Assembly (NCBI RefSeq): GCF_032062105.1
Contig: NW_026936003.1
Location: 434,001-498,000, forward strand
Source: Saccostrea cucullata
Lineage: Eukaryota
Direction: 5' to 3'
Length of the DNA: 64,000 nt
The position numbers were made by a program, and so were the translations under genes. The notes under the pieces were generated by a model. It had not been told where the DNA came from and ran no database searches. It saw only the letters and a program-made list of their open reading frames with translations. Within the stretch, counting starts at the first letter, position 1; each line of letters opens with the position of its first letter. Below, piece after piece: positions 47,581-59,500 of this stretch.

Positions 47581-50500
47581 GTTCTTTTAACATTTTAAGA
47601 GTTTATTCAGGATTTCTCCCGAGTATAACACAAAACTGCATCGTTATCTACTGAGCTAGCTGTGACGTTCTACAACGTCATTGTTTTTGTCGTTTTCAAT
47701 GAGGACTATCTCCATCTCAAATTGATTTCTTTACACCGAAGCAAAATATTAAGCCATAACTTGGGATATGAATCAATGTAAACTGTTCTCAATTTAAAAG
47801 CCTGGTTTTTTTTTTTCATTTTTGCTCTATTTTACAGAGAATGGAAATACAAACATTTTCATGATTATTAAGTGTGTCATTTATAAATTACTAAATTTTG
47901 ACCTGCTCTGCGATCCCATTTTTGAAGTTTTTAATTCCGGATAGGTTTGAAATAAATCATGATGCTTTTGAAAATTTTAATAAAAGTCATTTGGATTTAT
48001 TGTTAAAGTATTTCTACGAAATTTGGATAAAATATGAGTTTAATGAAAAAGATATGACAGAAGTTCACGAACTATCTCAACAACCCTCATAAACAGATAC
48101 TGTGACGCAATACTATGTAAATCTATCCATGCCATACAAAAACAATGAAGACAGGTCTTAATAAATTTCAATAACCATATATAATTTAATTTTGTTTGTA
48201 TCCTCGCCTCTCATTGGTTGATTTCCAAAAAGGAACGCAAATTATTTTGTATGATCAGGTTTGGTATGGGGACGCACCCTCTTGACGACCAGCTTAATCA
48301 TAATACTTTTGTGAAAACCACACGATCCTCAGTGTTTTCTAAATCATAAAGAAAACATGAAAACAAGTTTTGTACGCATTTGAAAATTAATGGATTTTAA
48401 TTACACAATTTGTTAATTTTCAGGTGTTCATTTATTGGCAAATTCAAATATTATTTTGAGTGCCATGAAAATACTTACACATGTGATCACAAGGGGAATC
48501 GGGTTTGTAATTCAAGTTACGTTGGACCAAATTGTGCACGTAAGTGCCCGCTTCTGCACAATGGATCTTGTGACGCAAACGGTGACGTAAAGTGTAACGA
48601 AAACTGGTATGGTCGAGATTGCAGCAAGCCATGTATTCCTCCTCTCAACGGTCTCTGTGATCAATGTGGTAATGTGGTGTGTAAAATAAATTACTATGGG
48701 AATGATTGTAACACTTACTGTGCTGATTCAAATACCGGTAAATGTAATGCATATGGGGAAATGGTTTGTTTCAAAAATTATTACAGGGAAAACTGCACCA
48801 AGTTTTGTCGAAATATAACACATGGATACTGTACATCATATGGAGATCAAATTTGTCATAACGATTATTATGGAAATAACTGCATAGTATTTTGCCCAAA
48901 CGTCACAACTGGTCACTGTTCAAATGAAGGAAAACTACATTGCCAGGATAGATATTATGGAGCAAATTGTACGACATTCTGTCCAAACGTCACACATGGT
49001 AACTGTTCTGAGAATGGGACATTAAATTGTCATCCAAATTACTATGGTGACAATTGTACGATATTCTGTTCTAATGTCACTCATGGTACTTGTTCACTAG
49101 AGGGAAAACGTATTTGCCGTGAAAACTATTATGGACAGAACTGCACCCAATTCTGCCCAAACGTCACGCATGGTACTTGTACACACGAGGGAGTACTTGA
49201 TTGTCACGAGAATTACTATGGCCCCAACTGTACCATATTCTGTCAAAACGTTACACACGGTACCTGTTCAAGAGAGGGACAACTCGACTGTGCTGATCAA
49301 TACTATGGAGCAAATTGTACGACATTCTGTCCAAACGTCACACATGGTAACTGTTCTGAGAATGGGACATTAAATTGTCATCCAAATTACTATGGTGACA
49401 ATTGTACCATATTCTGTTCTAATGTCACTCATGGTACTTGTTCACTAGAGGGAAAACGTATTTGCCGTGAAAACTATTATGGACAGAACTGCACCCAACT
49501 TCTGCCCAAACGTCACGCATGGTACTTGTACACACGAGGGAGTACTTGATTGTCACGAGAATTACTATGGCCCCAACTGTACCATATTCTGTCAAAACGT
49601 TACACACGGTACCTGTTCAAGAGAGGGACAACTCGACTGTGCTGATCAATACTATGGAGCAAATTGTACGACATTCTGTCCAAACGTCACACATGGTAAC
49701 TGTTCTGAGAATGGGACATTAAATTGTCATCCAAATTACTATGGTGACAATTGTACGATATTCTGTTCTAATGTCACTCATGGTACTTGTTCACTAGAGG
49801 GAAAACGTATTTGCCGTGAAAACTATTATGGACAGAACTGCACCCAATTCTGCCCAAACGTCACGCATGGTACTTGTACACACGAGGGAGTACTTGATTG
49901 TCACGAGAATTACTATGGCCCCAACTGTACCATATTCTGTCAAAACGTTACACACGGTACCTGTTCAAGAGAGGGACAACTCGACTGTGTGATCAATACT
50001 ATGGAGCAAATTGTACGACATTCTGTCCAAACGTCACACATGGTAACTGTTCTGAGAATGGGACATTAAATTGTCATCCAAATTACTATGGTGACAATTG
50101 TACGATATTCTGTTCTAATGTCACTCATGGTACTTGTTCACTAGAGGGAAAAGATTTTCCGTGAAAACGATTAAGGACAAAACTGCACCCACGTCTGCCC
50201 AAACGTCACGCATGGTCCTTGTACACACGAGGGAGTACTTGATTGTCACCAGAATTACTATGGCCCCAACTGTACCATATTCTGTCAAAACGTTACACAC
50301 GGTACCTGTTCAAGAGAGGGACAACTCGACTGTGCTGATCAATACTATGGAGCAAATTGTACGACATTCTGTCCAAACGTCACACATGGTAACTGTTCTG
50401 AGAATGGGACATTAAATTGTCATCCAAATTACTATGGTGACAATTGTACGATATTCTGTTCTAATGTCACTCATGGTACTTGTTCACTAGAGGGAAAACG

Positions 50501-56500: not shown

Positions 56501-59500
56501 CAAATTACTATGGTGACAATTGTACGATATTCTGTTCTAATGTCACTCATGGTACTTGTTCACTAGAGGGAAAACGTATTTGCCGTGAAAACTATTATGG
56601 ACAGAACTGCACCCAATTCTGCCCAAACGTCACGCATGGTACTTGTACACACGAGGGAGTACTTGATTGTCACGAGAATTACTATGGCCCCAACTGTACC
56701 ATATTCTGTCAAAACGTTACACACGGTACCTGTTCAAGAGAGGGACAACTCGACTGTGCTGATCAATACTATGGAGCAAATTGTACGACATTCTGTCCAA
56801 ACGTCACACATGGTAACTGTTCTGAGAATGGGACATTAAATTGTCATCCAAATTACTATGGTGACAATTGTACGATATTCTGTTCTAATGTCACTCATGG
56901 TACTTGTTCACTAGAGGGAAAACGTATTTGCCGTGAAAACTATTATGGACAGAACTGCACCCAATTCTGCCCAAACGTCACGCATGGTACTTGTACACAC
57001 GAGGGAGTACTTGATTGTCACGAGAATTACTATGGCCCCAACTGTACCATATTCTGTCAAAACGTTACACACGGTACCTGTTCAAGAGAGGGACAACTCG
57101 ACTGTGCTGATCAATACTATGGAGCAAATTGTACGACATTCTGTCCAAACGTCACACATGGTAACTGTTCTGAGAATGGGACATTAAATTGTCATCCAAA
57201 TTACTATGGTGACAATTGTACGATATTCTGTTCTAATGTCACTCATGGTACTTGTTCACTAGAGGGAAAACGTATTTGCCGTGAAAACTATTATGGACAG
57301 AACTGCACCCAATTCTGCCCAAACGTCACGCATGGTACTTGTACACACGAGGGAGTACTTGATTGTCACGAGAATTACTATGGCCCCAACTGTACCATAT
57401 TCTGTCAAAACGTTACTCACGGTACCTGTTCAAGAGAGGGACAACTCGACTGTGCTGATCAATACTATGGAGCAAATTGTACGACATTCTGTCCAAACGT
57501 CACACATGGTAACTGTTCTGAGAATGGGACATTAAATTGTCATCCAAATTACTATGGTGACAATTGTACGATATTCTGTTCTAATGTCACTCATGGTACT
57601 TGTTCACTAGAGGGAAAACGTATTTGCCGTGAAAACTATTATGGACAGAACTGCACCCAATTCTGCCCAAACGTCACGCATGGTACTTGTACACACGAGG
57701 GAGTACTTGATTGTCACGAGAATTACTATGGCCCCAACTGTACCATATTCTGTCAAAACGTTACACACGGTACCTGTTCAAGAGAGGGACAACTCGACTG
57801 TGCTGATCAATACTATGGAGCAAATTGTACGACATTCTGTCCAAACGTCACACATGGTAACTGTTCTGAGAATGGGACATTAAATTGTCATCCAAATTAC
57901 TATGGTGACAATTGTACGATATTCTGTTCTAATGTCACTCATGGTACTTGTTCACTAGAGGGAAAACGTATTTGCCGTGAAAACTATTATGGACAGAACT
58001 GCACCCAATTCTGCCCAAACGTCACGCATGGTACTTGTACACACGAGGGAGTACTTGATTGTCACCAGAATTACTATGGCCCCAACTGTACCATATTCTT
58101 GATTGTCAAAACGTTACACACGGTACCTGTTCAAGAGAGGGACAACTCGACTGTGCTGATCAATACTATGGAGCAAATTGTACGACATTCTGTCCAAACG
58201 TCACACATGGTAACTGTTCTGAGAATGGGACATTAAATTGTCATCCAAATTACTATGGTGACAATTGTACGATATTCTGTTCTAATGTCACTCATGGTAC
58301 TTGTTCACTAGAGGGAAAACGTATTTGCCGTGAAAACTATTATGGACAGAACTGCACCCAATTCTGCCCAAACGTCACGCATGGTACTTGTACACACGAG
58401 GGAGTACTTGATTGTCACGAGAATTACTATGGCCCCAACTGTACCATATTCTGTCAAAACGTTACTCACGGTACCTGTTCAAGAGAGGGACAACTCGACT
58501 GTGCTGATCAATACTATGGAGCAAATTGTACGACATTCTGTCCAAACGTCACACATGGTAACTGTTCTGAAAATGGGACATTAAATTGTCATCCAAATTA
58601 CTATGGTGACAATTGTACGATATTCTGTTCTAATGTCACTCATGGTACTTGTTCACTAGAGGGAAAACGTATTTGCCGTGAAAACTATTATGGACAGAAC
58701 TGCACCCAATTCTGCCCAAACGTCACGCATGGTACTTGTACACTCGAGGGAATACTTTATTGCCACAAGAATTACTTTGGCCCCAACTGTTCTACATTTT
58801 GTCGAAACACCGAGAACGGAATTTGTTTATTGTCTGGTACTCTGCAGTGCTTTGAGAATTACTATGGTAAGACATGTGACGTGTTTTGTAAAAATTCTAC
58901 ACACGGATCATGTTCTCATGATGGAACCTTAAATTGTGAATCAAATTATTATGGAATTGATTGTGAGAAGCTTTGTCTTACATCAGAAAAAGGGTCTTGT
59001 GATGAAAATGGAAATCTGTTATGTAACAAGAACTTTTTTGGGAGAAATTGTGAAACTTTCTGTCAAGATGCGCCCCATGGAAAATGTAATGATGCTGGTG
59101 TCTTGGTCTGTGAAAATCACTGGTATGGTAGTACTTGTTCAAAGAATTGTATTGAATTGAAACATTCGAAATGTGATGACCAAGGACAGTTGTCATGCTT
59201 CGACCATTGGTATGGAGACAACTGTACCATTTTTTGCAAGGACGATGATGTGGAAAAATGCAATATGAAAGGTATGTGTTTGTATAATAACAAAGACGTA
59301 TTTCTAAATAAATCTTTATAAATTTGATCGAATAATAAATTTTTTATTAGAGATAAAATTAAAAGTTGTAACAGCCCGAAACATAATTATACCACCACAG
59401 TATGAAAAATAAAAGAAAAGAAAGTATGATTTTATTATTAAATAAAGCAAATTATATTAACGTTCAACAATTACTCTTTTTTTTTTTTTGCTTTCATAGG

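Follow-up and report, generated by a model that had tools for sequence, protein, structure and literature searches.

Tandem repeats of near-identical coding units have been described in both spiders and molluscs. The black widow MaSp1 gene is a 9,390-bp single exon in which four ensemble repeats form a unit of ~120 amino acids (aa) that recurs 20 times, with 97.5% nucleotide identity among the copies, and the available text of the report invoked unequal crossing-over for it (PMC1885213). In abalone VERL, the accessible portion of the source described homogenised interior repeats (>95%), diverged repeats 1 and 2, divergent repeat types inside arrays, and an array length that varies among individuals, about 20 vs 22 units (PMC2704960). 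DSL domains or DSL tandem repeats without EGF were reported in bivalves only, as far as the consulted part of that study goes (PMC8166818). Here we analysed a 64,000-nucleotide stretch of the Saccostrea cucullata genome (NCBI RefSeq assembly GCF_032062105.1, contig NW_026936003.1, positions 434,001 to 498,000, forward strand), hereafter the window, in whose coordinates all positions are given unless a locus is named. The window contains a tandem array of ~28 near-identical 348-bp units of DSL-like repeats, predicted to form one giant exon of a transcribed membrane-protein gene, in which unequal crossing-over or gene conversion has likely kept neighbouring units uniform. The process is a known one, with nearly the same geometry in MaSp1 and a molluscan case in VERL; the protein is one for which we found no description. 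With precedents this close, the original prediction, made from the sequence before this analysis, framed the array as more unusual than it is.

The 348-bp higher-order repeat was recovered by Tandem Repeats Finder (TRF), which reported a 348-bp period at 97% matches in two blocks, 8.5 copies at 48952-51894 and 19.3 copies at 52050-58808, over an underlying 87-bp monomer period at 65-69% identity. In total, 28 unit starts spanned 48953-58512. Each unit consists of four 87-bp DSL-like monomers, and each monomer encodes 29 residues with 4 cysteines; the monomers were 66-69% identical to one another and the 4-mers 97%, as in a higher-order repeat. Diverged 29-aa monomers had been predicted at both edges, and those at 48518-48952 and 58773-59207, five full monomers per edge, indeed shared 41-70% identity with the core monomers. 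Interior units at 97% identity flanked by diverged edge monomers correspond to an array under concerted evolution. An exact 29-mer pattern search of genome G000 returned 24 matches, all 24 at this locus. The locus resembles MaSp1 in its giant exon, its four-part higher-order unit and its near-identical copies; MaSp1, in the text available, is a low-complexity silk fibre whose whole gene is one exon (PMC1885213), whereas here folded disulfide modules lie in a predicted multi-exon membrane-protein gene. It resembles VERL in being molluscan and in having a homogenised interior with diverged edge repeats, and differs from it in that VERL has 153-aa monomeric repeats and the ligand lysin, with no 4-mer substructure reported in the part of the source consulted (PMC2704960). 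Because the monomers within a unit are old, with a replacement-to-silent ratio (pN/pS) between them of about 0.3-0.5 at the identity given above, it is likely that a segment of four monomers underwent amplification recently. Exchange misaligned by steps of 348 bp would then preserve the frame, let variants spread locally and allow the edges to stay divergent, and new mutations would gain a few units at each step, producing staggered blocks.

The units fell into two clustered variants with hybrids at their borders, in agreement with what had been predicted. Variants A and B were separated by 9 linked differences, 8 replacement and 1 silent, and the listed changes from A to B were N21D, I37T, Q66H, E86Q, R107T, Q110K, A114R and one silent site. 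All nine diagnostic B sites were present in units 6-11 (50691-52895), 7/9 in units 12-13, and 1-4/9 in units 4, 5, 14, 15, 16 and 26; the remaining 14 units had none. The B block as a whole occupied 50.69-53.64 kb, with A units on either side. The clustering of B sites among neighbours was matched by none of 20,000 permutations, a result that rests on the assembled unit order. Differences between units grew with their separation, from a mean of 2.8 at distance 1 to about 9 at distances 9-16, and the B alleles extended over staggered stretches of units (198C: 4 and 6-16; 256C: 4-14, 16 and 26; 61G: 6-12). Within B, adjacent units 8-9 had a three-site sub-variant in common.

Parts of the window were found in 20 of the 24 listed sequencing runs, from 9 studies, and four of these runs were examined: X3 (RNA on record), X6 and X9 (guessed to be RNA) and X1 (guessed to be DNA). 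Runs X3, X6 and X9, which came from three studies, each contained one 378-letter circular contig corresponding to one gap-free 348-bp unit of variant A, and the X3 unit carried a silent change also present in 3 units of the window. An X3 contig carried a 40-letter loose end that matched the exon ending at 44643, joined to 48424, indicating that the acceptor of the giant exon is used in RNA. That X6 and X9 did not cover the 5' edge was not taken as absence. The X1 unit had the same 348-bp cycle, with the A letter at 61, 96, 110 and 256, the B letter at 198, and three further differences. As this is a B letter on an A background, a hybrid-type unit exists outside this assembly; as the X1 unit was unlike those of the other samples, majority units differ between samples. 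A contig boundary in X1 also appeared to coincide with unit position 233, the point at which the last window unit leaves the repeat. The 5' edge monomers of X1 (window 48575-48944) were present as two alleles about 6% apart, with 20 listed differences from the window, 13 of them replacements, and X1 is likely another individual because both edge alleles differed from the window. Contig depth in X1 was 267-272 for the unit vs 4.2-8.0 for the edge, which would correspond to roughly 17-25 units per allele, the same order as the 28 assembled units, with the proviso that depth is no copy number. Together with the distance decay, the staggered allele spans and the diverged edges, the differing majority units support the concerted evolution originally proposed.

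Paralogous arrays were found by a protein search of genome G000. Loci L014:947-4753 (- strand) and L015:3104-7429 each held a DSL-like exon with a homogenised array of 90-bp monomers (38 vs 42 monomers) between flanks that were 97-99% identical. A block of about 11-12 monomers was duplicated internally, and the two loci had one in-frame 42-bp insertion in common. Loci L016:3363-6512 and L017:3394-6510 had a 3,077-bp exon of the same length in both copies, which aligned without gaps at 93.9% and without frame breaks (pS 0.138, pN 0.041; pN/pS 0.3). That exon showed a diverged pattern three monomers (261 bp) long, with extra cysteines in every third monomer, and a Thr/Ser-rich segment came after it. 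Each of the two pairs is likely a haplotig pair, and L016/L017 could instead be recent duplicates, as their flanks were only 89-92% identical. The difference between 38 and 42 monomers suggests length polymorphism at the present locus as well, by way of a paralogue only. At two other loci, L018 and L019, very long EGF-repeat exons (open frames of 610 and 981 aa; 14-20 EGF matches) came after a small number of DSL-like monomers, and these genes stood nearer to expanded Delta-type ligands.

In one search for orthologues, a weak negative, the best representative match had 36% identity; the database covered proteins from about 610 aa upwards. Of 151 related proteins, 20 had an internal period with at least 80% identity, and not all of these were DSL-like (P0141 was not). 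Scallop P0001 (Ylistrum balloti, named Notch-like at its source), P0003, P0009, P0011 and P0058 resembled the present locus in having DSL-like arrays with near-identical periods, of 60, 67, 33, 72 and 116 aa, respectively; unlike it, their arrays were far shorter, and at 34-46% identity to the query they were not orthologues. Homogenisation therefore recurs in this class of DSL-like repeats. The array of P0001, with its 60-aa period at 95% identity, was homogenised independently, and the protein resembles two tandem Delta-like modules.

Several observations weigh against a homogenised coding array in the arrangement assembled here, the first group of which concerns the order of the units. A full B unit was seen in none of the four runs examined, a weak negative given that contigs drop minor variants, and contigs can show neither unit order nor copy number. 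The B block contained an 82-bp A-type fragment, and noisy patches lay at both A/B borders. This locus was assembled as one copy in G000, judged from its flanks and the 24 exact pattern matches, unlike two paralogues that were assembled twice each. With one copy of the locus assembled and an A fragment inside B, reads of two haplotypes may be mixed. The array could thus be real and its A-B-A map an assembly chimera of mostly-A and mostly-B haplotypes, in which case the count of 28 and the hybrid units would be partly artefactual. The single copy, the scrambled patches at both borders, the enclosed A fragment and the strongly diverged edge alleles of X1 all favour such a chimera, which we regard as a serious possibility, though one with less than an even chance of being correct. 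It would require two switches, and the B alleles have staggered, nested spans and do not switch jointly; B also carries its own sub-variant in adjacent units, and a hybrid-type unit was the majority unit in another sample. An A-B-A order in cis, on one chromosome, is the weakest step of the explanation by local homogenisation, and with one copy of the locus assembled we consider it only somewhat more probable than its absence.

The second group concerns the reading frame. Eight of 27 full unit intervals deviated from 348 bp (349, 347, 346, 465, 350, 397, 340 and 353), each of the three frames across the assembled exon contained 71-145 stops, and the first in-frame stop fell near 49.55 kb, so that the assembled exon closes after about 1.5 units; at the 59272 donor, the net frame was off by one. 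The prediction of a single exon without an intron therefore stood in part: AG and GT were present at 48422-23 and 59272-73 and the acceptor was used in RNA, and the assembled exon was not one open frame. In other respects the array was orderly, as all 103 clean 87-bp monomers kept their 4 cysteines and had no stop, after the exclusion of 10 other anchor intervals that were not 87 bp. The two largest patches were out-of-order mosaics of mostly 8-27-bp unit fragments. Homogenised arrays had 12 length-altering patches in 16.9 kb, and coding DNA of diverged DSL repeats had 0 in 8.2 kb (post hoc P about 0.009), a count from which the shared in-frame 42-bp insertion of L014/L015 was left out; apart from that insertion, the frames of L014 and L015 were broken at different places in the two copies. 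The unit appeared as a gap-free 348-bp cycle in all four runs examined, vs the broken frame of the assembly. Because of the mosaic patches, the non-shared breaks of L014/L015, the excess of patches in homogenised arrays and the clean cycles elsewhere, the frame breaks look like consensus errors. If the breaks were real, this would be a decaying pseudogene allele whose array behaves as a free satellite, as the eight length-altered units, the net frame shift and the absence of a purifying signal between A and B might suggest. We consider this quite improbable, in view of the intact cysteines and open frames of the clean monomers, the open frames of the other modelled exons, the clean cycles and spliced RNA from other samples, and the resemblance of the patches to consensus mosaics. 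The last point against is that the searches yielded no orthologue by which to judge conservation; they gave 1 match among 815 candidates (a scallop protein), 0/289 and 0/186, all weak negatives.

The coding constraint claimed in the original prediction was found at the cysteines and between monomers, at the pN/pS given above, and not between A and B. No purifying signal was visible in the comparison of A with B, as 8 replacements to 1 silent change fit neutrality (P=0.35), and outside the cysteines the A-B differences look neutral. Nor was there an excess of replacements at the 5' edge (13/20) or among the 16 shared unit variants (10 replacements). B could still be a selected functional variant that is spreading through the array, for example because it changes a binding surface or lacks one of the glycan sites, as most of its changes alter the protein and N21D removes an N-glycan sequon (10 per unit in A, 9 in B). 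We regard selection on B as unlikely, however, as its eight replacements do not exceed the neutral expectation.

Pfam DSL matched every array segment scanned at 108-141 bits, vs a cut-off of 24.2, and EGF_2 and EGF_Teneurin also exceeded their cut-offs on DSL residues in two array segments. With tandem Pfam DSL matches and no separate EGF exon in the model, the locus fits the description of the DSL-tandem genes of bivalves; for those genes, the consulted part of that study mentions neither homogenisation nor higher-order units, and gives no exon sizes or variation in length (PMC8166818). An alignment-based structure model of the repeat consisted of repeating short strands (predicted local distance difference test (pLDDT) 92.6, predicted template modelling score (pTM) 0.65); a poor single-sequence fold (pLDDT 46) was left unused. 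The top Foldseek matches of the model were Jagged, Delta and SCARF1 (E about 1e-6 to 3e-5, template modelling score 0.3-0.45). In VIA, the best match was SCARF1 (Z 6.3, root-mean-square deviation 6.8, 109 aligned), below that tool's level for a clear match, and Atlas matches were all <0.9 with low recognition and serve as leads only.

The repeat shares with Delta, Serrate and Jagged the pattern C-x3-YYG-x2-C-x3-C...H-x2-C...G-x3-C, the fold and a predicted single-pass topology. Those proteins have one DSL domain; here a 29-aa, 4-cysteine repeat occurs ~123 times, and no C2 or EGF match was found. The binding site of the Jagged1 DSL domain includes Arg203 and Phe207, according to the text available (PMC5538765). 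In an alignment with DLL1, a gap of 4 residues fell within the DSL loop of the repeat, between the cysteines of the second pair, and the shortened loop holds an N-glycan sequon. Arg203 and Phe207 of Jagged1 presumably map to this loop. A canonical Notch ligand has a single DSL domain with a full-length receptor-binding loop, and the locus departs from it on both counts. As the loop is shorter than in DLL1 and every unit carries 9-10 sequons, we infer a long glycosylated stalk, not a canonical Notch ligand. The predicted product is a rod stapled by disulfides, some 3,600 residues long and carrying roughly 270 N-glycan sequons, and may act as a glycosylated spacer or a multivalent surface stalk that presents the N-terminal part. 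The Pfam DSL matches in all scanned segments, the Notch ligands among the top fold matches and the predicted topology would also suit a multivalent ligand or decoy of the Notch pathway, whose ~120 DSL-like modules would bind the EGF repeats of Notch. We hold that to be very unlikely, given the shortened loop with its sequon and the lack of a C2 match or EGF repeats in the modelled exons. The N-terminal exons, a part of the N-terminus that the model covers incompletely, showed no detectable C2 homology against 151 proteins (best E 0.02), no C2/MNNL match was found in the short modelled exons, and no EGF repeats occurred in the modelled exons.

Considered with its paralogues, the locus suggests, tentatively and at somewhat under even chances, that DSL-derived oyster rods switch between a fixed state (L016/L017) and a state of turnover (this 4-mer and L014/L015), with the change from A to B caught mid-spread on one chromosome and with turnover so fast here that individuals differ in both majority unit and stalk length. 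If so, a surface rod of ~3,600 residues and ~270 sequons would have an allele-specific length and surface. Provided that the map is correct, comparing this locus with its paralogues would set fixed against homogenising coding arrays within one genome, which could help to show how concerted evolution is switched on or off in repeats of a folded domain and how far a variant spreads per event. No literature was found on concerted evolution or length polymorphism in an oyster DSL array, subscription journals lying outside the coverage. Such a very large, likely polymorphic surface protein is liable to be missed or truncated by annotation, because the protein searches found no close relative and its assembled frame is broken.

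The predicted gene around the array is summarised in the table below. Downstream of the array, the frame is open through the transmembrane segment to the stop in the exon prediction, from which a single-pass membrane protein is predicted; at that point five donors preserve the frame, 60090 among them. A Pfam scan gave no match for the juxtamembrane segment, nor for the one exon scanned of the segment that begins at 37467. Between 41344 and 44319, no convincing candidate for a linking exon was found.

Table. Coordinates of features in the window
Feature	Position	Strand	Basis
Three predicted exons (37467-37588, 37686-37803, 38144-38301), open non-repetitive segment before the 40303 exon	37467..38301	+	
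Non-homogenised DSL-like repeat exon with one 264-bp duplication; this gene or an upstream tandem gene	40303..41344	+	Pfam DSL, TRF
Predicted further upstream exon	44319..44418	+	Splice signals and frame only
Upstream exon joined to the giant exon by splicing	44504..44643	+	RNA loose end in X3; frame joins
Giant coding exon, ~123 29-aa 4-Cys DSL-like monomers, broken by indel patches in the assembly	48424..59271	+	Acceptor RNA-supported, donor from sequence
5' edge: short unique segment and 5 full diverged monomers	48424..48952	+	
Units 1-5: variant A, hybrid from units 4-5	48953..50690	+	
Units 6-13: variant B block, scrambled patches at ~51880-52050 and 53235-53485	50691..53642	+	
Units 14-28: hybrids (14-16), then variant A; last unit departs from the repeat at unit position 233	53643..58743	+	
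3' edge: diverged monomers as far as the donor	58744..59271	+	
Two predicted exons (59500-59644, 59931-60090), non-repetitive juxtamembrane segment	59500..60090	+	Open joined frame
Predicted transmembrane exon, hydrophobic run then basic residues	60490..60584	+	
Final predicted coding exon, with a short cytoplasmic tail and the stop	60856..60925	+	

In the upstream DSL-repeat exon, the 264-bp (88-aa) duplication lies at 40341-40873 with 91% identity, and its monomers have extra cysteines. Neighbouring open frames encode a VWA domain (459-1319), a coiled-coil and C1q gene (9190-9997) and an intronless fibrinogen C-terminal domain (24283-25098, - strand), a neighbourhood of putative innate-immune genes. 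Short arrays of a ~166-bp repeat occur at 10810-11285, 38717-39635 and 46689-47468, the last inside the intron before the giant exon; they match the length given for the oyster Cg170/HindIII family in the consulted part of the source, a likeness by length alone (PMC7492417). These arrays, the C1q gene and the scallop protein match are in keeping with an oyster as the likely host. Other non-coding tandem arrays lie at 27410-28183 (153 bp, 94% matches) and 31283-31847 (82 bp). Two tRNA-like elements with an undefined anticodon, at 34314-34386 and 34541-34613 (- strand), sit in a ~227-bp tandem duplication and are probably derived from a short interspersed nuclear element (SINE).

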